The translations under genes and the position numbers were made by a program. Below the pieces are notes generated by a model. The model had not been told where the DNA came from. It saw only the letters and a list, made by a program, of their open reading frames with translations, and made no database searches. A DNA stretch of 50,155 bases. Origin: a virus (taxonomy: Duplodnaviria > Heunggongvirae > Uroviricota > Caudoviricetes). Every line of letters begins with the position of its first letter. Within the stretch, counting starts at the first letter, position 1. Below, in pieces: positions 1 to 50,155 of this stretch. The stretch lies in the IMG/VR virus record IMGVR_UViG_2870479586_000004. The stretch is one strand, 5' to 3'.

Positions 1-1284
1 TTAAAGACTTCTGGAAGGTTGCGCAGCTCTGACAACACGCGGTTGATCTTCCGCAGCGTCTTCCAGCGCACTTAAATCACGGTCTTTCACTTCTGGCATT
101 TTCAGCGCAGAGATTAAACCAATCACAGAATATGCCATGATCATAATGGCGATCGGATACCAGGATTCCGTCATGGTGCAGAAAATCCCCGCCAGGATAG
201 GACCAAAACCGGAAGCGATAAGACCACCAATTTCTTTAGAAATAGCCATTCGGGTAAAGCGGTTTTTACAGCCGAACATTTCTGCCATGGTAATGTTTTC
301 CAGAGCAAATAATCCAAGCACCGCACAGTTATGAATCACAATCAGTGCAACCATAATGGTGCTCGGGGCATAGCTTTTATCTACGATGATAGAAAGCATT
401 GGCCATGCCAGCACAATTGCAGAGGTATTCATAATAATATACGGGATCCGGCGACCAATTTTATCGGATAACCAACCAAGGAACGGAATGGTCATAAAGC
501 CGAGAATCGAACTGATCATCAATGCATCTGTTGGAATTGCTTTGTTAAACAATAACGTCTGCACTAAATAGCCTGCAAGGAAAGTCTGAATTAAACCTGA
601 GTTACCAGCCTGACCAAAACGCAGCCCTGTTGCCAGCCAGAAGGATTTGCTCTGGAACATGCTACCAGCAGGTGCAGGTTTTGCTGTCGGTTGGTTGCTG
701 TCGTTAACCTTCTCAAAGACCGGGCTTTCTTTCAGATTCATACGCAACCAGATAGCAAAGACCATCACGACAACGCTCGCCAGGAAAGGTATACGCCATC
801 CCCACGCCAGCAGTTCCTCTTTACTGAGAATGAAGAACATAAAGGCCCAGATTGCCGTTGCGCTCAAGGTTCCGCAGTTAGTTCCCATAGCCACAAATGA
901 GGAGATAATTCCGCGCTTACCTTTTGGCGCATATTCCGCCAGCATCGTACCGGCACCGGAAATTTCCGCACCTGCACCCAACCCCTGAATAATACGAAGC
1001 GTCACCAGCAAGATGGGTGCAAAAACACCAATCTGTGCATAGGTCGGTAACACACCAATTAAGGTGGTACAGATCCCCATCATGGTGATGGTAATAAAGA
1101 GCACTTTTTTACGCCCTATTCTGTCGCCCATTTTGCCGAAAATAAATGCTCCGACAATACGTGCCACATAACCTGCACCATAGGTTCCCATTGCCAGAAT
1201 TAACGCCATTGCCGTTGATGATTCAGGAAAAAATATTTCATGAAACACTAACGCTGCGCCGAGCGAATATAACTGGAAATCCAT
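1..1284 (-). CDS. ydfJ: MFS metabolite:H+ symporter (ProP/ShiA-like family), 427 aa, complete
   Basis: Full ORF with stop at 1-3; about 12 predicted TM segments; MFS signature GDRIGRKK between TM2 and TM3; recalled similarity to K-12 YdfJ which flanks Qin. Confidence 0.8.
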   Translation of the reverse strand: MDFQLYSLGAALVFHEIFFPESSTAMALILAMGTYGAGYVARIVGAFIFGKMGDRIGRKKVLFITITMMGICTTLIGVLPTYAQIGVFAPILLVTLRIIQGLGAGAEISGAGTMLAEYAPKGKRGIISSFVAMGTNCGTLSATAIWAFMFFILSKEELLAWGWRIPFLASVVVMVFAIWLRMNLKESPVFEKVNDSNQPTAKPAPAGSMFQSKSFWLATGLRFGQAGNSGLIQTFLAGYLVQTLLFNKAIPTDALMISSILGFMTIPFLGWLSDKIGRRIPYIIMNTSAIVLAWPMLSIIVDKSYAPSTIMVALIVIHNCAVLGLFALENITMAEMFGCKNRFTRMAISKEIGGLIASGFGPILAGIFCTMTESWYPIAIMIMAYSVIGLISALKMPEVKDRDLSALEDAAEDQPRVVRAAQPSRSL

Positions 1285-2619: not shown

Positions 2620-3209
2620 ATGTCTCGAATTTTTGCTTACTGTCGGATATCAACGCTGGATCAGACCATCGAAAATCAACGCCGGGAAATCGAAAGTGCA
2701 GGTTTTAAAATCAAACCTCAGCAAATAATCGAAGAACACATTAGCGGCTCAGCAGCAACCAGTGAGCGTCCTGGTTTTAACCGGTTGCTTGCTCGCCTGA
2801 AATGTGGTGATCAATTGATTGTGACAAAACTGGATCGCCTTGGTTGTAATGCAATGGATATCAGGAAAACAGTGGAACAACTGACCGAAACAGGTATCAG
2901 AGTGCATTGCTTAGCATTGGGGGCATTGACCTGACCAGTCCAACAGGAAAAATGATGATGCACGTAATTTCAGCAGTCGCTGAATTTGAACGAGACCTTT
3001 TACTTGAACGCACTCATTCCGGGATAGTAAGAGCCCGCGGCGCAGGGAAACGTTTTGGTCGACCACCTGTGTTAAATGAAGAACAGAAACAGGTGGTATT
3101 CGAACGAATTAAGTCAGGTGTAAGTATAAGTGCCATTGCCCGGGAATTCAAAACCTCGCGGCAAACCATTTTAAGAGCCAAAGCAAAACTTCAGACACCT
3201 GACATATAA
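2620..3209 (+). pseudogene. pinQ: serine recombinase (PinQ/PinR-like), frame broken by an apparent 1-nt deletion in the G5 run at 2919-2923
   Basis: ORFs 2620-2934 and 2907-3209 are N- and C-terminal halves of one resolvase-family protein (catalytic [10 protein letters not shown]-terminal HTH); adding one G restores ...[17 protein letters not shown]...; total 590 nt, one short of 196 codons plus stop. Confidence 0.8.
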
Positions 3210-3306: not shown

Positions 3307-3882
3307 CTACGGCAGTGCTGGCCATTCAATATCCTGTGCAGTTGACGTATCAACACGGTTCAGCAACACCCGATACTTTTTCCAGGCTTCCAGCAATGAG
3401 GTTTCTTCCTCCGTTGCGATTTCCAGATCTACAGCATCCTGAAGTGGCGCAATATGCTCACTGGCTACCTGCATCAGGCTGTTTTTTGTTTCTTCCGCCT
3501 CTCGGATCCGGAACAGTTTTTCTGCTTCTGCATCTTTCACCCAGGCTGTGCCGTTCCACTTCTGAAACTCCCCTTCCGGCGATAACCAGGTAACATTTTC
3601 CGGTAACGGACCGAGTTCAGAAATAAATAACGCGTCCCCTGACGCTACGTCATAAACCGTTTTACCCCGATGGTCTTCAACGAGATGCCACGATGCCTTA
3701 TCACTGTTGAAAACAGCCACAAAGCCAGCAGGAATATCTGGTGGTGCAATATCGGTACTGTTTGCTGGCAGACCTGTATGAGGCGGAATATATGCGTCAC
3801 CTTCACCAATAAATTCATTAGTTCCGGCCAGCAGATTATAAATTTTTATGGTCCGTGGTTGTTCACTCATTCTGAATGCCAT
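3307..3882 (-). CDS. tfa: tail fiber assembly protein (Tfa)
   Basis: 191 aa; recalled similarity to lambda/Qin Tfa; immediately downstream of stf. Confidence 0.9.
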
Positions 3883-6848
3883 TATGCAAGCCTCACAATA
3901 TAGTTAAATGCGATGTTTTTGACGGTGTTTTCCGCGTTACCAGCAGCGTTAACGGTGATGGTGTGTCCATGTGAACCAATCGCAACGGAGTGCGTATGAG
4001 CACCAATACCGACAGTATGCGCGTGTGCACCTGCAGATGCTGCTGTGCCGGACAGTGAATGGCTATGATTACCATCTGTACTGGTATTCGCTAACCACCC
4101 CGTAGACATACCTACTGAGCCTTGTACACCCCAGGTATTTTGACCTGAGCTTGTATAACCATATTGATAAGTATCTTTAAAAACACTGGGGTTAAATCGA
4201 CGGCCATCTCTATGGCTGTGATTACCAGCTGCATTCGTGCTGCCACTTAAACTATGGGTATGCGCACCAGTGTTATTCGTGGATTTAGTGCCGTAATCAA
4301 ACGACGATGTGTTTTTCGTCCCCAAATCCGTACTGGATGCGCTGGCGCTGTGGGTGTGCGATTTAATGCCGTCCTGTTCCTGAGACAATACGGCACGACC
4401 ACTGGCGGGTTTGCCCTTAATCGTCCAGCCACGCATATCAGGGATCACGCCTGACGGATAAGCGGCTGCAAGTTTCGGGTATGCAGATTTGTCAAAAGTC
4501 TGCCCCTGCATCAGGGCATAGCCAGACGGAACGGTATCTGATGGCCACGGGATTGGTGCGCCAGGCGGATAAAACTGCTCTGATGGCGTATAGAGTGAAT
4601 AAACTGTACCGTCCGTTAACCCTTCCGGCTTATTAGCAGAATATGCTGGTGACGTATGAATCGTCACGCTGGCATTACTGGTATAATCCCATTGAATATT
4701 TACACCAGTCGCATAATTTCCGATTGCAACGTAAATATCGTAAGTATCACCAGATGTATTGACCCAGGCAAAATTTGTAAACCCTGTCGATGTGCGCTGC
4801 CATAAAGCACCAGTAATCCCCTTCGGATTACCATTACCTGCACGTAAAACAAGTTCAGATATACCTGCCTGTTGAGGTGACCCCACGTTAAATCCAGCGC
4901 CACCAATCAACGTAATTGAAACAACAGAACTCGCCTGTGGCATGGTTACCGTTGCTAATTTGAACCAACCAGCACCACCGCTGAATGACATTGTTGTTGA
5001 GTTAAGCGTACCAATATCTTTCGGCGTCAGTGTTATATCCGCTGAAAGCGCCTTACCATTCACCTTACGGGCAGAAGGTACCCGACCATTCGCATTGTCA
5101 TTAGCTGCTTTCACTGCTTTCGGTGTCGCAGCAAGCGTTTCAGATGTGCTGTTGGTTGCACTACTGAGCTGGACAATTCCTTTTTGTGCTGTCGTAGCGT
5201 CCTGTGCGGTGTATTTCCCGTTAGCCAGGTCATACGCGGCCTTAACGGCTTTTGGCGTTGCCGCCTGTGACTCGGAAGTGCTGTTAGTCGCACTGCTGAG
5301 CTGAACTATCCCTTTCTGTGCTGTCGTTGCATCCTGTGCGGTGTATTTCCCGTTAGCCAGGTCATACGCGGCCTTAACGGCTTTTGGCGTTGCCGCCTGT
5401 GACTCGGAAGTGCTGTTGGTCGCACTGCTGAGCTGTACTATCCCCTTTTTCGTCGTGCTCGCATCCTCAAGCGCCACGGCGGATGCAATATCCTCTGCCC
5501 GTTTTGCTGCTGTCTCGGCGCGCGTTGCCGCGGATTCCGCCGTACTTTTGCTCTGTGCTGCCGCTGCCGCACTGCCAGCAGCCTCTGTCGCCTTCGTGGA
5601 TGCCGTCGTGGCGCTGCCCCTCGCTGCTGACGCCTGTCTGGTCGCCTCATCTTTTGAAGCAGACGCAGATGATGCCGATGACGCCGCCGAACTGGCGGAC
5701 GATGCGGCAGCCGTTTTTGAGGATTCTGCGCTGGTTTCCGACGCTTTCGCGTTCGTTTCGGATGTCTTCGCTGCGGAAGCAGACCTCGCTGCTGCGCTGG
5801 CCTGTTCAGTGGCTTCGCCAGCCTTCGTTGTGGCTGTTGAAGCGGATGATGCGGCGCTTTCTGCCGATTTTCCGGCGGCGGTGGCACTGACTGCTGCCTT
5901 CTCTGCCTTAATGGACGCCTCACGGGCCGATGATGCAGCTGCTGTCTCAGAGTCTGCCGCAGCTGAGGCGCTCTGTTCCGCTGCCGTTTCAGAAGACCTG
6001 GCATTCGTCTCGGACGTTTTTGCCGCCTTCACGGAATTTCCTGCCGCCGTTGCCGAGGAGGCTGCACTGCTGGCGCTTGTGGAGGCGTTCGTTTCTGATG
6101 ATTTCGCTGCCTCTTTTGAGGCCGCCGCATCCCGGGCTGAAGTGGCGGCTTCTGACGCTTTCGTCGTCGCAGTGGATGCAGAAGTGGCTGCTGATTTTTG
6201 TGACGCTGCAGCATTCGTTTCTGACGTTTTCGCCGCACCGGCACTGGTGGCCGCCGCGCTTTTTGAGGACTCTGCAGCGGCAGCACTTTTTGATGCTTCA
6301 GTGGCCTTTGTTGATGCCGTTCCTGCGCTGGAAGACGCCTCCTGAGCCGAAGTCGCGGCCTGTCCGGCTGACGTGCTGGCTGCACGCGCTGAGCCTGCAG
6401 CATCAGTCGCATGGGTTGCCGCCTCACGGGCTGATGTGCTGGCATCGCTGGCTGACTTCTTCGCGGCGGCTGTGTTCTGTGCCACCGCGGACGCGTTACG
6501 CGCCACCTCTTCCACCATCAGTTCAAAACGTCGCAGTGCCTCCGGACGGGCATCATCCTCCGTCATGGCACCGAGAAAATCATTCAGCGTACCGGGTTGA
6601 GAATCTTCATACACGGTGATGGTCCCGGCATGTGACGGCGGGAATCCCTCCACCAACAGAATAACGCTGTACTGACCGTACTCAACGTCCATACTGTAAC
6701 GCCCGGCTTCATCCGGATTTTCTGAGGCCAGCGTGTTCACCACCACAGTGGTACTGTTACGTTTTGCTTTCAGCTGGATTGTGCAGTTCTGTACCGGTTT
6801 TCCTGTGCCGTCTTTCAGTACACCTGAAATCTTTACTGCCATATTCAC
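3882..6848 (-). CDS. stf: side tail fiber protein (Stf), 988 aa
   Basis: N-terminus [29 protein letters not shown]... typical of lambda Stf; long Ala/Ser/Thr-rich shaft; 45-aa unit repeated three times; His-rich C-terminal region (HSHSLSG...[14 protein letters not shown]). Confidence 0.9.
5077..5452. repeat. tandem coding repeat inside stf, about 132-135 bp x3 (first copy diverged)
   Basis: Near-identical DNA copies at 5209-5340 and 5341-5450 with a diverged copy upstream; encodes the triplicated 45-aa unit [44 protein letters not shown]. Confidence 0.8.
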
Positions 6849-6906: not shown

Positions 6907-7506
6907 TCAGAATTTATAACCGACACCCACGATGAAACCGTCAGTGCGCCAGTCGCCACTGCCGGAACCTTCATAAGCAAGGTCAATGGCCACGGATTCG
7001 GTCGGGTTAAACTGCACGCCAGCCCCCCACGCCAGAGACGTGTTGCTGTGGCGACCGTCATCACTTCCGGTCAGCACATCGTGCGTTTTCCCCTTGTTGT
7101 CAGTTACGCGGAGATAATCCCCGGAGAAAGTCGACACACGGCTGTAAGCCACACCCGCCATCGCATACGCGCTGAACCATTCATTCACGCGTACAGACGG
7201 CCCCGCCATCACGCTGAACCAGCGGTTACGCACGGAATCTTCATGCCAGCGGATATCGCTGTAACGGGTCAGCTGGCGATTCTTGTCTCCTGCATAGCTG
7301 AATGACGTCACCATTCCCAGCGTGTCCGTAAACTCATAACGGTATTTCACGTTAATCCCGTTAAGATCATCGCTGCCGGGAACGTTCGTCGAGGCATGAA
7401 GATACCCCGCGCTCAGCGTGGACTGATGTTCAGATGCCCATGCAGGCGCACCGGATACGGCCAGACAAATGGCTGCGGACAAAATTGCTGCACAAACTTT
7501 ACGCAT
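6907..7506 (-). CDS. lom: Lom outer-membrane protein (Ail/Lom family beta-barrel), 199 aa
   Basis: Signal peptide then beta-barrel sequence ending ...GFIVGVGYKF; recalled match to lambda Lom. Confidence 0.9.
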   Translation of the reverse strand: MRKVCAAILSAAICLAVSGAPAWASEHQSTLSAGYLHASTNVPGSDDLNGINVKYRYEFTDTLGMVTSFSYAGDKNRQLTRYSDIRWHEDSVRNRWFSVMAGPSVRVNEWFSAYAMAGVAYSRVSTFSGDYLRVTDNKGKTHDVLTGSDDGRHSNTSLAWGAGVQFNPTESVAIDLAYEGSGSGDWRTDGFIVGVGYKF

Positions 7507-7575
7507 AATTACCTCTCGCTTTTCTGCAATAAAAAAGACACCATTTCTGGTGCCCTTATATGGGTTATAACAATT

Positions 7576-10500
7576 TCAACGAATACTGATGCCGGAAGCG
7601 GCTTTTTTGGTCACAATCACCGTACAGTCGGTGATATTGCCTGCCCCCTGATTGCCTTTCTGGAAAATCTTAAACTCCAGAGTGACGCTACCACCACCAC
7701 TAGGCATATCAATAACTGCACTGTAACTACCGGGAATGGCCCCTTTAGTTTCTCTGGATGCGATTAATACGCCGTTTTTGCGAACTTCAAAACCATAACC
7801 CGTGTATCGCGTGCCTCCCGGGTTATTTCCGCTCCCCGGATCGTCATACGCTATACCGTTAAAAATAATGGGCGGAATAATAATCTGGCGGTCAAAGTTA
7901 TGATCATCGCTGATGGTGACTGTAACCGTACCGTTTGGTGTTTCCGTGTTACCCCACGTACCGACTTTTTTCGGGAAGGCTTTTGATACAGCTTTAACGA
8001 AATCCCCTCTGACCTGGGTCGCCTCCAGCATGCCCTTAATCGTACAGTTCTGGTTAATCGTGACATTGTTGAGCGTTCCTGAGTTCGCATTCACACTACC
8101 ACTGATATCCGCATTTTTAGCGGTCAGCTTTCCGTCTGATGTCAGGGAAAATACCGGAGGACTGCCACCGCTGGTAATGGCGGGGGCTGTCAGGCGCTTC
8201 AGGAACACGTCGTTCATGAATATCTGGTTGCCCTGCGCCACAAACATCGGCGTTTCATTCCCGTTTGCCGGGTCAATAAACGCGATACGGTTAGCGGCAA
8301 CCAGGAACTGGCTCAGTTTGCCTTCCTCCGTATCCTCCATGCTGAGGCCAAGCCCCGCGACATAATGTTTGCCGTCTTTGGTCTGCTCAATTTTGACGCC
8401 CCACATGGCATTCCATTTATCGTTGGCGTCCTTCCACTCTTTCGAAAACTCCTCCAGTCTGCTGGCGTTATCCTCCGTCAGCTCGACTTTTTCCAGCAGC
8501 TCCTTGCCGAGATGGGATTCGGTTATCTTGCCTTTGAAAAAATCCAGGTAACCTTCCGCATCATCGCTCGCCCGACCGACGGCCTCCACGAATGCCGATT
8601 TGCCAACGGTGTTCACACTGCGGATATAAAAGTAATAATCATGGCCCGGTTTGATATTGATACTGGCGGCTATCCAGTACAGCGCCGTACCAAGATAGCG
8701 GGCTGTGGTTTCAACCTGCCTGATATCGGTAATCTGCTTTTCCGAGAACCAGAATTCAAACTGTACCGTCGGATCATAAACCGCAAGATGCGGCGTGGCG
8801 GTTATCTGAAAATAGCCCGGCGTCAGCTCAATCTGTGACGGCGCTGCCGGTGCGGCAATCCGGAACGATACCGACGCCGGATCGCCCTGCTGTCCCCGGG
8901 CATTTACCGCCCGGACTGTCAGCGTGTAACGCCCCAACGCCAGCTGCCTGAAGCGGTATGTGGTTTCCGTCGTCCGGGCCGTGCTGACCAGCCGCTCACT
9001 GCCGTCATCCGCTGCCACGGTCAGGCGAAGCATAAAGCTCCCCCCTTCACCACCTTCGGCGTATCCCAGCGCGCCAGCACCTGGTATTCCCCGCTGTCTG
9101 CGGTGACTTCTGCGGTCAGGTGCTGCACTGCTGGCGGCGTGACACCATTCACCGTGCCGCTCTGGTCGCCGTCAAAGTGCGCCCCGTTATCCACGATGGC
9201 CTCTTTCTCCGGCACATGCTGCACAGCGGTGATGGCATACGTGCCTTCGTCATTCTCACGGATACTCACGCAGCGGAACAGGCGCTGGCGCAGCGTCGGC
9301 AGCTTCAGCCCCCATACACTGTATTCAGCAACACCGTCAGGAACACGGCTCACTTTTACCTTCACGCCGTCGGTGACGGACTGAACCTCCACGCTGACCG
9401 GATTGCCACTTCCGTCAACCAGGCTTATCAGCGTGGTACCGGAGGATGGCAGCGTGATTTCACGGTCGAGCGTCAGCGTCCGGGTCTGGCTGTTCACCGC
9501 CAGCACACGACCACCGGTGCTGATACCGGCATAGTCATCATCACAGATTTCAATGACATCGCCCGGCACATGGCGAAGCCCTTCTGCGCCCACGCAGAAG
9601 TCCACGGTCTGCGTTTCCAGCAGTTCTGTTTTAATCAGCCACAGCCCGGCGCGGTGTGCCTGCCCCCGGCTGGTACAGCCAAAAGCATCCATCTTCGTGA
9701 CGTTACGACCGTAACGGGCAATGGCCTGCGTATCCTCCACAAGCTCTGTCGCCGTCTCCCAGCCGTTGTTCGGGTCAATCCAGTTCACCTCAACGGCATT
9801 ATGGCGGTCTTTCAGGGCGCTAAAGCTGTAGCGGAACGGCGCGCCATCATCCGGCATCACCACATTACTGCGGTTATAGGTCCACACCTTATCCGACGGT
9901 CGGTCCTGCACGAACGTCAGCGTCTGCCCGTTCCATACCGGCATACAGCGCATCGCCGAGCAGAAATCACTGAGCACATCCCACGCCTTGCGCTGTGTGG
10001 TCAGGTACGCATTACAGGTGATGCGCGGCTCCGTGCCGCCAAAGCCGTCCGGCACTGACTGGTCGCAGTACTGGCCGATGACATACAGCGCCCATTTGTC
10101 CACATCCGCCGCACCAAGACGTTTCCCCATGCCGTAGCGTGGATGGGTCAGCATATCCCACAGACACCAGGCCATGTTATTGCTGTATGCTGGCTTAAAC
10201 GTTCCGTCCCAGATACCGCTGTATTGCCGCGTCTGCGGGTTATAGTTCGACGGCACCTGCAGAATACGCCCGCGCAGATGATAATTACGGCTCACCTGCT
10301 GACTGCCGAACTGCTCTGAGTCCACCTGTACGCCAACCAGTGCCGTGTTCGGGTAGCACTGTTTCACATCGATGATTTCGGTGTATGACGACCAGAGCGT
10401 TTTGTTCTGCAGCTGGTCTGTGGTGCTGTCCGGTGTCATCCTGCGCATCCGGATATTGAACGGGCGCGGCGGCAGGTTATCCACCACCACCGAGGCCAGA

Positions 10501-10988
10501 TACTGCGAGGTGGTTTTGCCCTTAATGGTGATGTCTTTTTCCGTCACCCAGCCACCGTTACGTTGTATCTGAACCAGCAGGCGGACTTCCGACGGATTCC
10601 GGTCCCCCTTTGAAGTGGTTTCCACCAGTGCCTGCACACCGAAGGTAAAGCGCAGACGGTCGATGTTTGCCGACGTGATGGTCCGGGTAATCGGCGTGTC
10701 GTACTTCACTTCCGTACCCAGCACCGTCTCGGAGCCGGAGGATTCAAATCCCTCCGGCGGTGTCTGCTCCTGCTCACCAGCCCGGAAAACCACCGTGACA
10801 CCGGAGATATTGGTATTCCCCTCACTGTCCAGCACTGGCGTACTGTTCAGCAGCACACTTTTTAATCCGTCCACCGGACCTTCAATCGGCCCTTCACTGA
10901 TGGCGTCTATCACGCTCAGCATCTGGGATGATTTCAGGTTGTCCTTCGCTTCGCGCGGGGTATGCCCCTTACTGCTGCCTTTACCCAT
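7576..10988 (-). pseudogene. J: tail tip host-specificity protein J, frame broken near the C6 run at 9050-9055
   Basis: ORF 9021-10988 (655 aa) matches the lambda J N-terminus (MGKGSSKGHTPREAKDNLKS...); ORF 7576-9033 (485 aa) continues J; total 3413 nt, one short of in-frame; the last ~130 aa diverge from lambda J. Confidence 0.85.
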
Positions 10989-11048: not shown

Positions 11049-11719
11049 TCAACGACCAATCACCACAACCTGACCACCGTCCCCCTCGTCTGCCGTGCTG
11101 ATCTCCTGAGAAGCCACCCGCGACCCCACGCGCATTTCACCGTACAGAACAGGCAGAACATTGCCCTGGGCAACCATGTTATCCAGTGAGGAGAAATAGG
11201 TGTTCTGTTTGCCGTTATCCGTTGTCTGTGTACGGGGAGTTCTGGCTTTCGGTGCCAGCATCTGCGCCACACCACCGAGCACCATACTGGCACCGAGAGA
11301 AAACAGGATGCCGGTCATACCACCGGCCCCAATGGCTGCCCCCATGCTGCAAGGGTGGCTCCGGCGGTAAAGAATGATCCGGCAATGGCGGCAGCCCCCA
11401 GGACAATCTGGAATACGCCACCTGACTTGGCCCCGGCGACTCTGGGAACAATATGAATCACAGCGCCATCAGGCAGAGTCTCATGTAACTGCGCCGTTAA
11501 CCCGGACGTGCTGACGTCCCGCCCGGCAATCCGTACCTGATACCAGCCGTCGCTCAGTTTCTGACGAAACACCGGGAGCTGTGTGGCCAGTGCGCGGATG
11601 GCTTCAGCCCCCGTTTTCACACGAAGGTCGATGCGGCGGCCAAATCGTTGCAAATCCCCGTAAAGGCAGATGCGCGCCATGCCCGGTGACGCCAGAGGGA
11701 GTGTGTGCGTCGCTGCCAT
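11049..11719 (-). pseudogene. I: tail assembly protein I, frame broken by an apparent 1-nt deletion at 11340-11344
   Basis: 11315-11719 encodes the I N-terminus (MAATHTLPLASPGMARICLYGDLQRF...), 11049-11345 the C-terminus (...GGQVVVIGR); adding one G restores AAWGAAIGAGGMT; 671 nt versus 672 expected. Confidence 0.85.
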
Positions 11720-13064: not shown

Positions 13065-13392
13065 CAGTTCACCACCTGTTCAAACTCTGCGCTGAACTCA
13101 ACACGCAACATACTGACCCGCGACGACCATTTTGCGCAGGTCACCTTTATCTGCCTGTAACCATAAGGCGGCGTCCACAGAAAGGCTTTCCAGCCCCCGT
13201 GCTCTTCCAGAAACGACTCCAGTACCGTGGCCTCCTCACGGGGGACAGAAAGCGTCACGCTGTACGTTTTCAGGTTGGCATTCAGCCCGGCAGGCGCTCG
13301 CTGGGAATAGCCATCACCAAAGCGCACCTTTCTTACAGAAGGGCCGAAGCCACATCCATACCGGGTTTCACTTTCCAGCGGAAGGTTTTCAT
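13064..13392 (-). pseudogene. M: tail tip protein M, frame broken by an apparent 1-nt deletion near 13341-13345
   Basis: ATG overlapping the H stop (ATGA) encodes MKTFRWKVKPGMDVAS then stops; the remainder (...SVRKVRFGDGYSQRAPAGLNANLKTYSV...EFEQVVN) continues in another frame; 329 nt versus 330 expected. Confidence 0.8.
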
Positions 13393-20751: not shown

Positions 20752-22050
20752 TTACACTGGTGTGTTCAGCAAATCGTTAACGGCATCAGATGCCGGGTTA
20801 CCTGCAGCCAGCGGTGCCGGTGCACCCTGCATCAGACGATCCAGCGCAGTGTCACTGCGCGCCTGTGCACTCTGTGGTGCAGCTGCCAGAATGCGGCGGG
20901 CCGTTTCCACGGTCATACCGGGGGTTCCGGCCAGCACGCGTGCCTGTTCTTCGCGTCCGTGAGCCTCCTCACAGTTGAGGATCCCATAATGCGACTGTTT
21001 TCTGCCGCAACCGCTGCGGTGATCTGCGCGTTCACGTCCGGCTGCGCCGCGCTGGCGTTCTCGCCCTCCGTCGCTGACACCACGTCAGTAACGTCAGCCT
21101 GCAAAGCAGTGGCTGAAACAGTTGTTGATTGAGTCTCTTTGGTCATTCGCCCTCCTGAGAGACGGGATTTACGTGCATCCAGTGCATCACGCATGACGGT
21201 GATCGCATCGGTGCTGTTAACAAGTTCATCAGCCAGTCCGGCATCAATGGCCTCCTGACCGCTGTACACTGCAGCCTCGGTATCCAGAACAGCCTGCACG
21301 GACAGGCCGGTATATGCCGACACTTTCTGCGCAAACATCTGGCGGGTTGCATCCATCCGGGACTGCAGTGTTTCCCGGACGTCATCCGGAAGATGGCTGT
21401 AGGGGTTGCCATCCACCTTATGGCTGCCGCTGTAAATCAGCGTGATTTCCACGCCCTGTTTCTCCAGCGCAGCACCGTAATTGCTGTGAGCCATCATGAC
21501 GCCGATGGAGCCTGTCCGGGCGGTCTGCGTGACCAGACGCCGGGAAGCGGCACTGGCAAGCAACTGACCTGCACTGCAGTTCATGTCGTTGGCCAGCGCC
21601 CATACCGGTTTTATGTCACGCACACGGGCGATGATGTCAGCGCAGTCAAATGCCCCCGCCACCATCCCGCCGGGCGTGTCCATATCGAGCAGAATGCCGT
21701 CCACCATCGGATCGCTGGCAGCCTGTTGCAGACGGGCGATAATGCCGTTGTAACCGGTCATCCCCGAATACGGCTGCAGCGCCCGCGTCCGGCTGACCAG
21801 CGTGCCGGAAACCGGCAGCACGGCGATGCCGTTCATGACCTGATAACTGCGGGCCTGTCGTGGTCCGTCATCATCACCGGATAACGCCAGCGTCGCGGGT
21901 GCCTCTCCGGCAGTCAGGCTGTCACCGGACACCGCATCTGTCAGGCGGCTGATCCCAAGCTGGCCTGCAAGCGCACAAAAGAAAACCCGCGCATAGGCGG
22001 GTTCAAGCATCAGCGGCTCATTAAAGGCCATGCTGGCAATATGCGGGAGA

Positions 22051-28114: not shown

Positions 28115-28385
28115 GATGTTACCGTAGTATGTGAGTATCCATCGAATAGATACCAAGCAAAAAAGCTCCCGAAGGAGCCTTCATTTTCACTTTTTTAAAT
28201 CCAACGACAGACGGCTGGCATTTAAGTATTGTGAAATATTATCAAATGTAATCATCATTGATTTACAAAAGATACATTTTGCCCCGAAAGGATTCATGTC
28301 AGAAACATCAAAAGATGATGTTCTATACTGGGAACCATGACAACACGGGCATCTAAAGTGAATATGGTTTGTAATATTGTCTACC

Positions 28386-28598
28386 TCAAAGCGCCACTAC
28401 ATGAACAGCGGCAGGACCTTTAGGTCCGTTCTCAATACCAAATTCAACTTCCTGATTCTCAGTTAATGTTTTGAAATCGTTGCTCTGAATTGCTGAGAAA
28501 TGGACAAACACATCTTTGCTGCCATCTTTCGGCGTGATGAAACCAAAACCTTTTTCAGGGTTAAACCATTTCACTAAACCAGTCATTTTGTTAGACAT
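28386..28598 (-). CDS. cspI: cold-shock protein CspA-family, 70 aa
   Basis: [70 protein letters not shown]; RNP1/RNP2 motifs. Confidence 0.9.
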
Positions 28599-28961
28599 AA
28601 TTATTACCTTTTGAAGAAATTAGCCCTTGGGCAGAATGGTCCGAAAAAAAATATCAGAGAGAAAAACCAACAAGGAAATCTCAAGAGGTACAAATAATAA
28701 AATTATAACAATGACTGCTTCAGATAAATTTGTAACAAACCAGAACACCATTAACGCATGATTAACCACCCATAGCAAGGATTACTTTTGTAAAGAAAAA
28801 CACAGCAATGAAAGAATAGCTTTATTTATTAATAATAACGTGTCATTCTGATTAAGACCTTTTATCTTACCCTTAAGATTTCAGGAATTTTGGCTCATGG
28901 AAGAGTCCTTTTTATTTAAATTTTACATTCCGCGATGTAAATGTTCCGATTTAATATTACC

Positions 28962-30988: not shown

Positions 30989-31270
30989 TGAGATTGTGGT
31001 GCTTTTTGTGGGAGTCATCCACTTACGCACTTTGTTTTGCCATGCCAGCAGTTAGCTTCTGCTGTAAAACTATTCATGCAGCAAACCTGCACTTCACCAC
31101 AATGGTTAGCATACTTTTCCTGATTAAGATTTTGCCAAATATGCTAGCCATTGTTTCATGTATTGGACCTCCTTACTTTTTATTAAAGAGATCCAATATT
31201 CACTACTCTGTCCGTATCTCTACTCAGGCATCAGCCTTCTTCGTTATCGTATACAGACGAGCGATGAATT

Positions 31271-31486
31271 TTAATCAGTAATGATGACATTTGCTGCTGC
31301 AGGACCTTTAGCACCACTCTCTATAGAGAAGGTAACCTTTTGACCTTCAAATAAGGTTCGATAATTATCATTCTGAATCGCAGAAAAATGCACAAACACA
31401 TCTTTACTACCATCAACAGGAGAAATAAAGCCGAAACCTTTATCAGCGTTAAACCATTTTACTAAACCAGTCATTTTATTTGACAT
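31271..31486 (-). CDS. cspB: cold-shock protein CspA-family, 71 aa
   Basis: [71 protein letters not shown]. Confidence 0.9.
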
Positions 31487-31786
31487 TCTACATTCCTTAA
31501 CTTGAGCCTTTCGGCATAAATGGTTTGCATAACAGAAACGACTTCGTACTTAATTGGAGAGACTCAAAGAAGGAATAAGTGAATAACACCTGAAATGAGA
31601 ACTGCTTTAGTAAACTACTTCGTATATCGTCTGTTCTTCAAACCGACGCAATCATTAACGCATAGTTGAACATATGAAGCAATGTTTATTTTAGACATCC
31701 AGCCATCTTCAACCCCATCAAAAAACTATAGCTTTCTTCAGGAACGTGTGTATAGTGCGCCAAGTTATCAGTATTAAGGAATTTTT

Positions 31787-35277: not shown

Positions 35278-35565
35278 TCAGAGAATGCGTTTGACCGCCT
35301 CGCTATATACTTCCGAGCGTTCTCTTTTCCCAACAGAAATCACGAAAACGACAACTTTCTCGTCTATAACCTGGTATACAAGGCGATAGCCTGAAGACCG
35401 GAGCTTAATCTTGTAACAATCAGGCATACCACGGAGCTTGTTTGCTTCAATCCGGGGTGACTCAAGTACTTCAACCAGCTTCTTTTTCAACTGTTCACGT
35501 ACCGTCGAGCCCAGCTTTCGCCATTCCTTTAGTGCCCGCTCGTCAAAATCCAGAAAATACGCCAT
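35278..35565 (-). CDS. relE: RelE mRNA-interferase toxin, 95 aa
   Basis: MAYFLDFDERALKEWRKLGSTVREQLKKKLVEVLESPRIEANKLRGMPDCYKIKLRSSGYRLVYQVIDEKVVVFVISVGKRERSEVY... Confidence 0.95.
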   Translation of the reverse strand: MAYFLDFDERALKEWRKLGSTVREQLKKKLVEVLESPRIEANKLRGMPDCYKIKLRSSGYRLVYQVIDEKVVVFVISVGKRERSEVYSEAVKRIL

Positions 35566-36708: not shown

Positions 36709-37105
36709 CCATCAGCCTTTTCTTTAAAGACATATTATCTTTGTATCATTTCTGATAGTTAACATTACAAGATATAAGTAATGGACGCACTCCCAATTAG
36801 TCTATTTAAATCGCCACGAGTTTAACTGACAACCCATGATCAATTATGAATTGCAACTATTTCTGTAGTCACTTTTGTGGGGACAGTCCACAAAACTGCC
36901 AACTTCCGCTTCTTGCTCTTAGCGGACATTAGCATAGGCTATTTACCATAACGCCTCATTACGCGCACCGCCCAGACTGACTCAGCGCGTTTCTGGCATA
37001 TCCCCGGTAAAACAAGTAACAAACCACCCGAAAATGAACACCAGAAACGCGACTTAAGAATCTACCCTATGAATGGATATGCACTCAACCGAATCGATCT
37101 TGGTT

Positions 37106-38447
37106 TCAATCTTTTTTATCGGGATCAGGCTTCTTTTTAGGTAACTTCGGGGGCTTAACTTGCTGATGACTTTGCGTTCGGCGCGTAAGCCAGGGATGGT
37201 CAGCTTTAGGTTTAACATAGTATTTTGAGCGTAAATCAATACGGGCATTATCCACTCGTTCATGGACACTCTTTTCATCATCCAGTGGTATAGGCTCCGG
37301 GCCATCAACATACTTTTCCCAGCCCAGCGCTTTCCCGTCATACAGAACGTTAATTTCACCGTCAAAGTTCTCGCATACAGTAACAACCGAATGCCTAAGT
37401 CGATATCCCCGGCCCTCACTGCGTACCTGAAACGCACTGCTTTTGTACTGGAAAGTGAGATTTTTAGACAGAACGCGCTTCGCCTGTAGGCTGAAGATAT
37501 AACCCAGTTCCTCTTCAGAATGGTGCACATCAAGATGAGCATTATCAGTAGTACGAGGCGACGTAGCGAACCGGTTGTTATAGGCTTCAATAAAGGTCGG
37601 CAACCATGCATTTGCTGTTTCAATATCACTGATATTCTGAAGCCGCATTTCTTTGACCAGCCTGTCCTGTAGTGTCTGATTGGCGCGCTCTACCCGCCCT
37701 TTTGCCTGCGGGCTGTTGGCATGGATTGGCTCGATGCCCAGTGTCTTTATCGCACGAGTGAACTGGGTCAGCTCACCTTCCCGCTCTGGGTTATTTACCC
37801 TGAATATACTGTGTCTATCAGAGTAGAGAGCGAGCGGTACGCCATGATCATTAAGGTAACCCCGGAGGGTTTCCATGTAAGCCCGGGTTGTTTCAGCAGG
37901 CACAAAACGCAACGCCATCAACGCACTGGTGGTATCATCAATGAAAACGATCAGTGTACATCTGGGGCCTCGATTTTCAAACCAGTCATGAGGTGAGCCA
38001 TCAATCTGGATCAGTTCACCGTAAGAGGGTCGTCGCATGCGGCGTTGATATATACGGGCAATTTTACGACGGCGTTCACGCCATACCCCCCTCTTCTATC
38101 ATCCACTTTCTGAGAGTTTCAACGGATAAAGATAAACCGTGTATCTCGCGCAATTTTTCGCACGCAAACGTAGGTCCAAAATCAGCGTAACGGCCTTTGA
38201 GGAGTGAAATTACTGTTGCTCTGAATTCAGTAGAAAAGGAATTATTAGGACGCTTTCCACGTCGGTGGGAAACCAGACCAGAAGGCCCTTCATTTCTATA
38301 CCGTTGCACCAGACGTTTAACCTGCCGAATAGAAATGCCAATGCGTGCCGCAGCTTGTTCCTGAGTAATATGTCGATTAATTGACTCCTGAATAATCTGA
38401 AGTCGGTGGAGTTCCTTATGACTCATCGTAACAGTTTCTTTGGTCAT
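37106..38447 (-). pseudogene. DDE transposase (IS481/ISNCY-like) split into orfA (38076-38447) and orfB (37106-38038) at a C6 homopolymer (38086-38091)
   Basis: orfA has an HTH (ARIGISIRQVKRLVQRY); orfB has an rve core (IQIDGS...FIDDTTS...SPQAKGRVERANQTLQDRL); removing one base fuses them into about 446 codons; a -1 shift would not reach orfB. Confidence 0.7.
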
Positions 38448-38594
38448 GAAAAATCCCCCAGAGAATTGTCTGGGGACATTTTAGAATGGTTCAAAGGGGA
38501 CATTACAGCTTGGTGTTAACAATAGCCTGCTTCTCCTGTGTAAGTTCACAGAGATATTGCAATTGCCTCCGGATAAGTAAGGGGAGATTGCACT

Positions 38595-39683
38595 ATGCAA
38601 ATGCAGCATCTGATGGTTGGCTATCCTAAGTACTACCAAACGGCCGATTATGCGTTGAGGCTTTCAGTGATGGCTGATATAGCAACAATGAGAATGAAGG
38701 CTCTGCACTTCTGGGATAAACACGGTATTTCTGCAGCTTCTGAAGCCTTTGGCGTGTCCTGCCGCACGCTTTACTGGTGGCGTCAGTTACTGAACAAGGA
38801 AGGACCTGAGGGGCTAATCCCGCACAGTAAGGCACCTCTGGTGCGACGAAAAAAACACTGGCATCCCGATGTGCTGAAAGAGATTCGACGCCTCAGGACA
38901 GAGCTGCCGAACCTCGGTAAAGAGCAGATTTTTGTTCGCCTGAAGCCCTGGTGCGAACAGCGCTATCTGGCCTGTCCGAGTGTTTCCACCATCGGCAGAA
39001 TGATCGCTGCCGCACATGATAAAATGCGGATGATACCTGTGCGTCTGGGATCGCGGGGGAAGGCACTGCTTGTCAAAAAGCGGTCTGCCAAACCCCGCAG
39101 GCCAAAGCACTACCGCCCGGTAAAGACAGGTGAGCTCATTGGGATGGACGCCATTGAGCTCAGAATGGGCGAACTGCGTCGCTATGTCATCACCATGATC
39201 GACGAATGCAGCAATTACGCGCTGGCACTGGCTGTGCCGTCACTCAACAGTGATATCGTCAATCACTTCTTCAGCCGCGCAGCCCGGTTGTTCCCGGTCG
39301 GTATCAGCCAGATAATCACAGATAACGGAAAAGAGTTCCTGGGAAACTTCGACAAAACGCTGCAGGAAGCCGCTATCAAACACCTCTGGACCTATCCCTA
39401 CACGCCAAAAATGAACGCTATCTGTGAACGTTTTAACCGGACGTTAAGAGAGCAGTTTATTGAATTTAATGAGATTTTACTCTTTGAAGATCTGGCGCTA
39501 TTTAACCAGAAGCTGGCGGAATATCTGGTGCTGTATAACAGCAAAAGACCCCACAAGGCGCTCGCACTAATGACGCCCGTGGAATATATTTTAAAAGAGA
39601 ATAAAAATTGCAATATGTGGTGGACCCATACATCTCCTTGCCTTTCGGCACGTAAGAGGCTAACCTACATGTGTCTGGCATGA
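38595..39683 (+). CDS. DDE transposase, rve family (IS481-like), 362 aa
   Basis: N-terminal HTH (FGVSCRTLYWWRQ), rve core (GMDAIEL...ITDNGKEF...NAICERFNRTLRE). Confidence 0.75.
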   Translation: MQMQHLMVGYPKYYQTADYALRLSVMADIATMRMKALHFWDKHGISAASEAFGVSCRTLYWWRQLLNKEGPEGLIPHSKAPLVRRKKHWHPDVLKEIRRLRTELPNLGKEQIFVRLKPWCEQRYLACPSVSTIGRMIAAAHDKMRMIPVRLGSRGKALLVKKRSAKPRRPKHYRPVKTGELIGMDAIELRMGELRRYVITMIDECSNYALALAVPSLNSDIVNHFFSRAARLFPVGISQIITDNGKEFLGNFDKTLQEAAIKHLWTYPYTPKMNAICERFNRTLREQFIEFNEILLFEDLALFNQKLAEYLVLYNSKRPHKALALMTPVEYILKENKNCNMWWTHTSPCLSARKRLTYMCLA

Positions 39684-39882
39684 AATTGGCCTCAGATTAA
39701 TGTTAAGCGTCTTGCAGGACGCGTAATGTTAACTGGGGCTTTTCTCTACCTGCCGTTGGTGTTCGTGCCCGAGGCAGATAGCCTCAAGCACCCGCAGTCA
39801 TTCTACTTAACTAAGATTTCCCCGCAAACCGTTTTTGTCCAGCACAGTAAATATCCAACTAAACCAATGGAGTTCGCTGTAT

Positions 39883-41214: not shown

Positions 41215-41571
41215 TTAAAAAATCAGAACGCCGTGCGGCCTCAACACCCGAAAAGCTTCTTTAAATCTCTGTCGCAAATCATCACGCCAGGCATCTTTAT
41301 TCAGCCGTCCATATTTCTTTCCCATCCAGGCGTTATCACCAACACGCTCAAGATGCGGAGGGTCTAATACAACCATCGAAAAAGATGCGTCTGCAAATGA
41401 TAATGCACGAAAATCTGCGATAATGTCAGGGCTGATAATCAAGCGTCTCCCATTGCGTAATGTGTATCCTTCTTTTCTGATATCGCTAAATATCGCCCGT
41501 TCGTCAGACTTATCGAACCAGAACATGCGGCTGCCACAGCACATATCAAGAATGGTTGCCGGTGCACTCAC
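41215..41571 (-). CDS. SAM-dependent DNA methyltransferase-like protein, short or truncated (118 aa)
   Basis: Motif I-like ILDMCCGS, motif IV DPPH, then LRPHGVLIF; TAA stop at 41215-41217 is followed in frame by 29 further sense codons; start overlaps upstream stop (ATGA). Confidence 0.55.
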   Translation of the reverse strand: MSAPATILDMCCGSRMFWFDKSDERAIFSDIRKEGYTLRNGRRLIISPDIIADFRALSFADASFSMVVLDPPHLERVGDNAWMGKKYGRLNKDAWRDDLRQRFKEAFRVLRPHGVLIF

Positions 41572-45377: not shown

Positions 45378-45435
45378 TTTCTGGTGACGTTTGGCGGTAT
45401 CAGTTTTACTCCGTGACTGCTCTGCCGCCGTTTTT
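45378..45435 (+). ncRNA. dicF: DicF small RNA (ftsZ-targeting antisense sRNA) within the dicB operon
   Basis: TTTCTGGTGACGTTTGGCGGTATCAGTTTTACTCCGTGACTGCTCTGCCGCCG followed by TTTTT matches recalled DicF almost exactly; upstream of dicB. Confidence 0.8.
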
Positions 45436-48840: not shown

Positions 48841-48874
48841 CTAAAAGCCACACTAACTAATGAGAGAAGTTGAA

Positions 48875-50155
48875 ATGAAATATCCGACAGGCGTGGAAAA
48901 CCATGGAGGGAAATTACGTATCTGGTTTGTTTATAAAGGCGTAAGAGTCAGGGAAAACCTGGGGGTTCCTGACACAGCAAAAAACAGGCGCGTTGCAGGT
49001 GAGCTACGCGCCTCTGTTTGTTACGCAATAAAAACTGGTGTTTTCGACTATGCAAAACAGTTTCCCTCCTCACGCAATCTGGAAAAATTTGGTGAGGCCC
49101 GACAAGATTTAACCATAAAAGAACTGGCTGAAAAATTTCTGGCACTGAAAGAAACTGAAGTCGCCAAAACATCACTCAACACATACCGTGCCGTCATCAA
49201 AAATATCCTGAGCATAATCGGTGAAAAAAATCTTGCCTCATCGATTAATAAAGAAAAATTACTGGAGGTTCGTAAAGAGCTACTGACTGGATACCAGATC
49301 CCCAAAAGTAACTATATTGTTACACAACCAGGGAGATCGGCTGTAACTGTAAATAATTACATGACAAATCTTAACGCCGTGTTCCAGTTTGGTGTTGATA
49401 ACGGTTACCTGCCAGATAATCCGTTTAAGGGGATCTCGCCATTAAAGGAATCAAGAACCATTCCGGATCCTCTTTCGCGGGAGGAATTTATCCGTCTTAT
49501 CGATGCGTGCAGAAATCAGCAAGCAAAAAATTTATGGTGTGTTTCTGTTTATACTGGCGTTCGCCCTGGTGAGCTGTGTGCACTTGGATGGGAGGACATA
49601 GATCTGAAAAATGGAACAATGATGATCAGGAGAAATTTAGCAAAAGACCGTTTCACGGTACCAAAAACACAGGCGGGAACCAATCGGGTCATTCATCTTA
49701 TTAAGCCAGCAATCGACGCTCTCCGGAGTCAGATGACATTAACGAGACTGAGCAAAGAGCATATCATTGATGTTCACCTCAGAGAGTATGGCAGAACAGA
49801 AAAACAAAAATGCACCTTTGTTTTTCAACCTGAAGTGTCAGCGAGAGTAAAAAATTATGGTGACCATTTTACCGTTGACTCAATAAGGCAGATGTGGGAC
49901 GCAGCGATAAAACGTGCCGGACTCCGCCATCGAAAATCATATCAGTCGAGACATACTTATGCCTGCTGGTCGCTGACAGCTGGTGCTAACCCGGCATTTA
50001 TAGCAAACCAGATGGGCCATGCAGATGCGCAAATGGTATTTCAGGTATACGGAAAATGGATGTCTGAAAACAATAATGCACAGGTAGCTTTGTTAAATAC
50101 ACAGTTAAGCGAGTTTGCCCCAACCATGTCCCATAACGAAGCAATGAAAAATTAA
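48875..50155 (+). CDS. intQ: tyrosine-type phage integrase, about 426 aa, stop at window end
   Basis: MKYPTGVENHGGKLRIWF... N-terminal arm-binding region; catalytic region with RHRKSYQSRHTYA and conserved Tyr context; ORF-track alternative start at 48860. Confidence 0.85.
   Translation: MKYPTGVENHGGKLRIWFVYKGVRVRENLGVPDTAKNRRVAGELRASVCYAIKTGVFDYAKQFPSSRNLEKFGEARQDLTIKELAEKFLALKETEVAKTSLNTYRAVIKNILSIIGEKNLASSINKEKLLEVRKELLTGYQIPKSNYIVTQPGRSAVTVNNYMTNLNAVFQFGVDNGYLPDNPFKGISPLKESRTIPDPLSREEFIRLIDACRNQQAKNLWCVSVYTGVRPGELCALGWEDIDLKNGTMMIRRNLAKDRFTVPKTQAGTNRVIHLIKPAIDALRSQMTLTRLSKEHIIDVHLREYGRTEKQKCTFVFQPEVSARVKNYGDHFTVDSIRQMWDAAIKRAGLRHRKSYQSRHTYACWSLTAGANPAFIANQMGHADAQMVFQVYGKWMSENNNAQVALLNTQLSEFAPTMSHNEAMKN

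Follow-up and report, generated by a model that had tools for sequence, protein, structure and literature searches.

Two questions arise at this prophage locus: which host receptor the tip of its central tail fibre is built for, and whether the gene, as sequenced, could place that tip on a virion. The window, meaning the whole 50,155-nt stretch of the IMG/VR record IMGVR_UViG_2870479586_000004, carries gene J, encoding the tip attachment protein (central tail fibre), on the minus strand at 7576..10988. An earlier note, made by reading the sequence, had proposed that the J product tracks lambda J for about 1000 residues and then diverges in its receptor-binding end, implying a different receptor. 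Profile searches place the gene in the lambda gpJ family: Pfam hits to Phage-tail_3, FNIII-A_GpJ, Ig_J, Ig_J_second, Phage_Tail_Tip and Ig_GpJ_C were obtained, with PF24801, PF13550, PF24421, PF24489, PF09327 and PF12421 each exceeding its cutoff and following one another as expected, and phmmer matched J to lambda gpJ in PDB 8iyk with E = 3e-234. Its position is also that of a J gene, within a tail cluster H-M-L-K-I-J-lom-stf-tfa, and tblastn with the 434 virion proteins recovered the series Nu1-A-W-B-C-D-E-FI-FII-Z-U-V-G-H-M-L-K-I-J-lom on the minus strand in lambda order, at 95–100% identity except for FI (86%).

In place of an uninterrupted J frame of about 1130–1140 codons, the ORF listing and translation gave two overlapping ORFs in different frames: a 5′ ORF of 655 aa (9021..10988, minus strand), closed by a premature TGA at 9021-9023, and a 3′ ORF of 485 aa starting from an internal ATG (7576..9033, minus strand). 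The earlier note had assumed a single J product of about 1130 residues, which the window does not encode. With 434 J as the tblastn query, aa 1-649 aligned to 10988-9042 and aa 648-1137 to 9048-7579, again in different frames, and global alignments to the J genes of 434, lambda and an E. coli prophage contained only one 1-nt gap. The gene thus measures 3413 nt, one base less than the intact 3414 nt found in 434 and in two E. coli prophages (lambda J is 3399 nt). The deletion lies in a run of six G on the gene strand (C6 on the plus strand) at 9040..9045, where lambda and 434 read AAG GGC GTG AGC (GGGCGTG) and the intact allele of E. coli A25 reads AAG GGG GGG AGC (G7), while the G6 of the window leads into the TGA. 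J nt 451-2250 are otherwise about 100% identical to the intact A25 allele, so the J lesion is either recent or artefactual.

The position of the break within the protein bears on its consequence. The 5′ ORF contains the hub domains and the start of the first Ig-like domain (positions 1-40 of the PF24421 Ig_J profile, at aa 610-649), and the 3′ ORF resumes at profile positions 45-104 (aa 2-62) and continues through Ig_J_second, the tail-tip fibre domain and the receptor-binding domain. With the first Ig-like domain divided in this way, halves made as separate proteins are unlikely to work. A candidate explanation in which the frameshift falls in the linker between hub and fibre, so that a split J could still assemble, is ruled out by this Pfam placement. 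The frameshift lies about 1.05 kb upstream of the receptor module, and as sequenced the receptor domain is neither joined to the tail-tip hub nor expressed within a full J.

To compare the protein with lambda J (NC_001416), we inserted one placeholder base at the single gap and computed identity in 50-residue bins. The repaired J is 94–100% identical to lambda J over residues 1-950, save one 88% bin at 651-700 beside the frameshift, then drops to 76% at 951-1000 and to 42%, 28% and 35% over 1001-1137. The proposed likeness over about 1000 residues therefore holds to residue 950, and only once the frame is repaired. The divergence claimed for the last roughly 130 residues is confirmed, identity to lambda being 28–42% over the last ~137, and the peptide quoted for it is present exactly in the 3′ ORF; alignment excludes a C-terminus essentially identical to that of lambda J. 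The C-terminal domain as a whole is about 35% identical to the LamB-binding domain of lambda, and the window J does not belong with the LamB-binding specificity region of lambda (residues ~960-1132), from which it is separated by four indels within a common fold. These indels, at lambda residues ~1008-1012, 1043-1049, 1078 and 1099-1114, match the four indel hot spots (1012, 1049, 1077 and 1107) reported for the J ‘specificity region’ 960-1132 (PMC6646904). Framework motifs common to both proteins are FP, DDHxFDRQI, NG, DMPxGxG and KKxxxGIS. A concentration of the divergence from lambda in loops was not found: predicted strands are 34% identical and the remaining positions 41%.

A sliding comparison of nucleotides, together with the mapped mismatches, shows that the divergence is confined to a block of about 1.1 kb (6981..8080, minus strand) made up of J codons ~970-1137, the spacer between J and lom, and the greater part of lom. 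Dense mismatches to lambda begin at about 8080 and stop at about 6981, inside lom. Within the block, nucleotide identity is 51–72% to lambda and 96–100% to 434, whereas outside it identity to both is about 95–96%. Since the same block is 96–100% identical to 434, the C-terminal divergence of J is not a matter of chance, and its origin by gradual drift is ruled out by the sharp boundaries together with the near-identity to 434. What the block shows instead is the signature of a module exchanged by recombination, set in a tail cluster that is otherwise lambda/434-like. The span of 7576-8000 given for the divergent part by the earlier note correctly ends at the J stop codon (7576-7578), but the quoted peptide already starts near 8082 and the block runs on through the spacer and most of lom. 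The accompanying description of the virion genes as near-identical to lambda also holds in part: J nt 1-2900 are 95.4% identical to lambda but as close to 434 (96.0%). The virion genes being equally close to the two phages, the element is better called an ordinary lambda/434-type mosaic than ‘lambda with a new tip’.

We then asked how the C-terminal 167 aa of J are distributed, using them as a tblastn query against 50,697 phage records. Matches were found in 243 records, which separate cleanly into 74 at 90% identity or more and 169 below 60%, with none between. The two records of phage 434 matched at 97.6% and 97.0%, ‘lambda h434 imm21’ at 97.0%, mEp460_ev081 at 100%, and many Stx-converting and ECOR-derived lambdoid phages at 99.4%. 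The best match to 434 J runs ungapped through all 167 aa, agreeing in length and in the placing of indels, and the receptor domains differ by four substitutions (N1019D, I1108V, Q1110H and G1115R). Of 5,426 complete E. coli genomes, 2,112 carry the DNA of the domain (7576-8000), in nearly every case at 90% identity or more, so the 434-type tip is among the commonest J tips. From these comparisons we class the window J as a member of the lambda gpJ family whose tip belongs to the h434 class and lies outside the LamB-binding class of lambda.

The receptor domain itself (7582..7989, minus strand; aa 349-484 of the 3′ ORF) matches PF12421, Ig_GpJ_C (‘Tip attachment protein J, C-terminal receptor binding domain’), at 90.1 bits, against a gathering threshold of 26.2. 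The AlphaFold2 model, based on an alignment of 10 sequences, is all-beta and Ig-like; its confidence is only moderate, with a mean pLDDT of 75 and poor termini. The top Foldseek matches of this model were all gpJ receptor-binding domain structures (8xck, 8xcj, 9wca and 9wcb), with E values around 1e-13, TM scores of about 0.73 and 38–44% identity. Among these, 8xck and 8xcj are the lambda gpJ domain in its closed and LamB-bound forms (38% identity, TM 0.73), whereas 9wcb is the A8 gpJ domain with OmpC (44% identity, TM 0.74) and 9wca the closed A8 fibre. A sequence search of the PDB returned only lambda gpJ and the ‘A8 gpJ 713’ chimera, with a phmmer score of 125 bits for A8 vs 95 for lambda. 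No structure of a 434-type domain was found in that sequence search, the nearest solved domains being 38–50% identical.

What receptor would this domain use? Host specificity is set by the J C-terminus (PMC3509688, PMC11101478), and a lambda phage given 434 J in place of its own J uses OmpC, the receptor of 434 (PMC3509688, PMC11101478, PMC12502783). The central fibre of 434 is treated as an OmpC binder and has been modelled as a trimer docking onto the OmpC trimer (PMC12502783), and particles in which lambda J carries the C-terminus of another natural gpJ are redirected to OmpC, with preferences that depend on the allele (PMC11338833). Aligned with J proteins of known receptor, the C-terminus is 97.6% identical to that of 434 (OmpC), 44% to that of A8 (OmpC) and about 35% to that of lambda (LamB). 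Because 434 J, with its near-identical C-terminus, uses OmpC, a receptor other than LamB, as the earlier note had anticipated, is well supported by this analogy. Taking the two parts together, it is very probable that a 434-type module was swapped in by recombination as the ~1.1-kb block and that the J domain uses OmpC rather than LamB, by homology with 434; for the window allele itself, OmpC use is inferred by analogy.

The mechanism that we propose begins with the host-range module of phage 434, which through recombination would have come to occupy the 3′ end of J in place of that of lambda. The J part of the block would form the Ig-like receptor domain in which the trimeric central tail fibre ends, and on the homology with 434 this domain is predicted to dock on the OmpC porin trimer and not on LamB. 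In lambda, receptor binding spreads the three receptor domains, the change is passed on via a beta-prism and a helical shaft, and the tail tip opens (PMC11101478); OmpC binding would likewise lead to rearrangement of the fibre and opening of the tail tip. Which host strains would be susceptible is not predictable, because gpJ variants discriminate among OmpC alleles (PMC11338833).

The same sensitivity to sequence bears on the alternative that the domain, despite its likeness to 434, has a different receptor, such as OmpF or another porin, in place of OmpC. One or a few changed residues in the J specificity regions have been enough for lambda and phage 21 to gain the use of OmpC or OmpF (PMC6646904, PMC11336670), and two of the four substitutions that separate the window allele from 434 fall in non-strand positions of the model. 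Against this stand the 97.6% identity to 434, the 99–100% identity of the domain to that of many isolated phages and of the h434 class at large, and the lack of any length change relative to 434 at the indel hot spots, and we consider a non-OmpC receptor improbable. Phage 21 does not serve as a natural OmpC-using comparator, since its native receptor is LamB (PMC11336670). A literature search by name for receptor data on mEp460, ‘IdasGreatGrand’ and ‘h434’ returned nothing usable.

Whether a module predicted to bind OmpC is deployed at all depends on the frameshift, and J is not the only gene affected. Tail gene I has a -1 frameshift at 11339..11343 (minus strand), where a G6 run on the gene strand is shortened to G5, and tail gene M has another at 13341..13343 (minus strand), where CCCC in 434 has become CCC; in both cases relatives at 98% identity are intact. 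A third, at 20983..20985 (minus strand), reduces GGGG to GGG, relative to 434, in gene C, which encodes the head protease/scaffold. The deletions in C, M and I are private to the window when compared with 434 and with the intact prophage of E. coli 00-3076. Since J, I, M and C have all lost their frames, neither a tail tip nor mature heads can be made by the prophage as sequenced, and a statement that it uses a different receptor may therefore describe a fossil and not a working phage.

We considered whether these lesions reflect the decay of the prophage or bases dropped during sequencing. Under the first reading, J is a genuine pseudogene of a decaying, cryptic prophage at the Qin locus and its 434-type domain is a non-functional relic; under the second, bases were lost through error in sequencing or assembly (drop-outs or compressions in G/C runs), and the true J is an intact protein of 1137 aa with a working 434-type tip. 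Decay would account for four private -1 frameshifts in the essential virion genes C, M, I and J, one of them splitting the Ig_J domain, and it suits the surroundings. The prophage sits at the Qin locus of E. coli, between a ydfJ-like MFS gene (1..1284) and int (48860..50155), which adjoins rspB in relatives. Its early and lysis genes are of Qin type, and it also has pseudogene remnants, transposase remnants, an extra transposase ORF (38595..39683), a truncated methyltransferase ORF (41215..41571) and a split pin recombinase, as seen in other decayed Qin-type elements. What fits decay less well is that all other virion genes are full length, at 86–100% identity to 434 (at least 95% for all but FI), with no nonsense codons or larger deletions, as though selectively maintained, which favours the error reading. 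The near-identity of J nt 451-2250 to the intact A25 allele, but for the missing G, likewise counts against decay, as does the uniformity of the four lesions, each being the loss of a single base from a G/C run.

This uniformity speaks for error: all four events are deletions, all lie in G/C runs and all are private to the window. The best relatives among complete genomes are 97–98% identical across the virion module, and in the comparison with the intact E. coli 00-3076 prophage (97.6% identical over 24.9 kb, with 588 mismatches) the four frameshifts are the only indels besides one intergenic gap and a divergent stretch in H. The intact state of relatives at 98% identity at the I and M sites points the same way. 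In the virion module, none of the A/T runs of at least 6 nt carries an indel (15 of 15), unlike the expectation from generic homopolymer sequencing error, and this lack of change in A/T runs of 6–7 nt argues for decay and against error, as does the fact that two of the affected G/C runs are only 4 nt long when intact. Six other genomes match the int-xis-exo region at 100% identity over 4155 nt, which again speaks against error. In the Qin-like regions, a comparison with a 98%-identical relative gave indels that are only intergenic or ambiguous. On these data, decay and dropped bases in G/C runs stand roughly level; we give an even chance to J being a genuine pseudogene and nearly as much to its being an intact gene misread.

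The J run itself is a special case, as the same contraction occurs elsewhere. The gpJ of the E2348/69 prophage also has G6, in all four E2348/69 assemblies, and is annotated as ‘frameshifted’ in NC_011601.1, the E2348/69 record that we examined. This reproducibility across independent assemblies argues against a sequencing error, and the occurrence of the same G7-to-G6 change there and in three IMG/VR contigs is consistent with decay. Among 122 matches to the site in an IMG/VR sample, 108 read GGGGGTG, eight have G7 and three have G6, in different backgrounds, so that besides the window the G6 form occurs in at least three backgrounds (E2348/69, with its four assemblies, and the three IMG/VR contigs). 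The G7 run was created by a T-to-G change in one J allele that turned K-G-V-S into K-G-G-S, and it is a recurrent site of contraction, or of miscalling. Recurrent G7-to-G6 contraction in a single J allele is the only mildly unusual item of the locus.

Such a run could in principle serve as a contingency tract, in which G6 turns the tail tip off and a return to G7 turns it back on, or the G6 form could yield some full-length J through -1 ribosomal slippage on G GGG GGA. A slip of this kind would restore exactly the wild-type residues, and three copies of J suffice for a virion. The three other lesions in the window make either reading unlikely, and we regard both as highly improbable.

For phages of this prophage family, the receptor domain indicates which porin is used, predicted to be OmpC and not LamB, which bears on host-range prediction and on the choice of natural gpJ tips for retargeting lambda-based delivery particles. 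A second host-range determinant is the side tail fibre gene stf (3882..6848, minus strand), which is intact, encodes 988 aa with Pfam phage_tail_N, Phage_fiber_2 and Collar domains, and resembles 434 Stf only in its N-terminal 169 aa; it is followed by the tail fibre assembly gene tfa (3307..3882, minus strand; 191 aa, Pfam Caudo_TAP). Next to J lies lom (6907..7506, minus strand), a 434-type allele of the Ail/Lom outer-membrane protein gene (PF06316, 403 bits; 96% identical to 434 Lom). The class of the receptor domain, its receptor and its modular exchange have all been known since the lambda-434 hybrids, and with the class long known from lambda h434 hybrids and present in about 40% of complete E. 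coli genomes, the importance of the result lies mainly in annotation. Its practical value is a correction: J is not intact, four virion genes carry frameshifts in G/C runs, and the reads ought to be checked before the element is described as an intact, inducible phage.

Four known systems place the window J in context. Lambda gpJ (NP_040600; PDB 8xck, 8xcj and 8iyk), which binds LamB, shares its family, domain order, gene neighbourhood and Ig-like fold, but differs over the last ~137 residues (28–42% identity), with indels at four places, and in its receptor, which for the window is predicted to be OmpC. The domain of the A8 gpJ chimera (PDB 9wca, and 9wcb with EDL933 OmpC) is the closest solved structure and also comes from an OmpC-using tip, but forms a separate sequence class at ~45–50% identity, so that its OmpC contacts cannot simply be transferred to the window domain. 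The E2348/69 gpJ (E2348C_RS28990) agrees with the window at 300 of 301 nt around the G run, having the local allele and the G7-to-G6 contraction in common with it, and also has a 434-like 3′ end, but belongs to a different prophage at a different locus, in a longer J (3715 nt) with a divergent middle. The fourth is J of phage 434 (UMO75286.1; ‘h434’, OmpC), an intact gene of 3414 nt. The window departs from 434 near J residue 650, where it has K-G-G-S-F-M in place of K-G-V-S-F-L together with the frameshifting G6, and in its side tail fibre, which is 988 aa long compared with 437 aa in 434. Once the frame is repaired, the two J proteins are 98% identical overall at the amino acid level, and the window and 434 also share the lom allele and the J-lom arrangement downstream.

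In the tail-tip gene J, the G run at window 9040-9045 (minus strand) has lost one base relative to the intact allele of E. coli A25, so that seven Gs become six (G7 to G6). This contraction divides J into ORFs of 655 and 485 aa, with the break falling within the first Ig-like domain, and the earlier note's treatment of J as one product is thus not borne out. The same contraction is present in other genomes and in other J backgrounds: six Gs were observed in a locus from E. coli E2348/69 (L004, 6001-6301) and in the IMG/VR loci L073, L093 and L105, and seven in the IMG/VR loci L023, L025, L037, L046, L054, L063, L070 and L071. The commonest allele at this site is GGGGGTG (108 of 122 sampled), and therefore the unstable G run arose by a T-to-G change.

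J is a mosaic in its own right. Window 8739-10538 (J nt 451-2250) is about 100% identical to the E. coli A25 gpJ gene, which is longer (3717 nt), and the following ~600 nt match phage 434 and lambda, with 65–75% identity to A25; the tip is of the 434 type in all J genes compared. The 434-like block extends past the J stop codon, crosses the spacer and takes in some 175 codons of lom (window 6981-7575), and therefore the tip of J appears to travel as a pair with the lom allele.

Three further virion genes, I (11339-11343), M (13341-13343) and C (20983-20985), each carry a frameshifting single-base deletion in a G/C run that is absent from both phage 434 and a related intact prophage in E. coli 00-3076. 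All three are well conserved apart from these frameshifts, and none of the 15 A/T runs of at least 6 nt in the virion module is altered. As sequenced, the I, M and C frameshifts could reflect either decay or sequencing error.

The prophage occupies the Qin locus (window 1-1284 and 26400-50155), running from a ydfJ-like MFS gene (1-1284) through int (48860..50155), whose end coincides with that of the window. Its virion module is complete and of lambda/434 type, and its early and lysis genes are of Qin type. Rfam matches include DicF RNA (45379-45430), sok (39627-39793), two cspA-type thermoregulators (28359-28744 and 31255-31647) and, inside tfa, IS009 RNA (3341-3539); a RelE/ParE-like toxin is encoded at 35278..35565. 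The stretch 37054-39683 holds transposase remnants, with an IS1202-like ISEsa1 fragment according to annotation of relatives, and also a 362-aa transposase ORF (38595..39683) inside the ~38% of the query that is unmatched in Qin regions, which are elsewhere 99.9% identical. Two overlapping ORFs at 2620-3209 are the positional counterpart of a pin-type recombinase, which carries a frameshift annotation in the relative E. coli 00-3076.

The side tail fibre gene stf (988 aa) contains internal repeats at window 5097-5447, seen as shifted, 219-nt self-similar matches and also as Pfam Phage_fiber_2 repeats. Its likeness to phage 434 Stf is limited to its first 169 aa.
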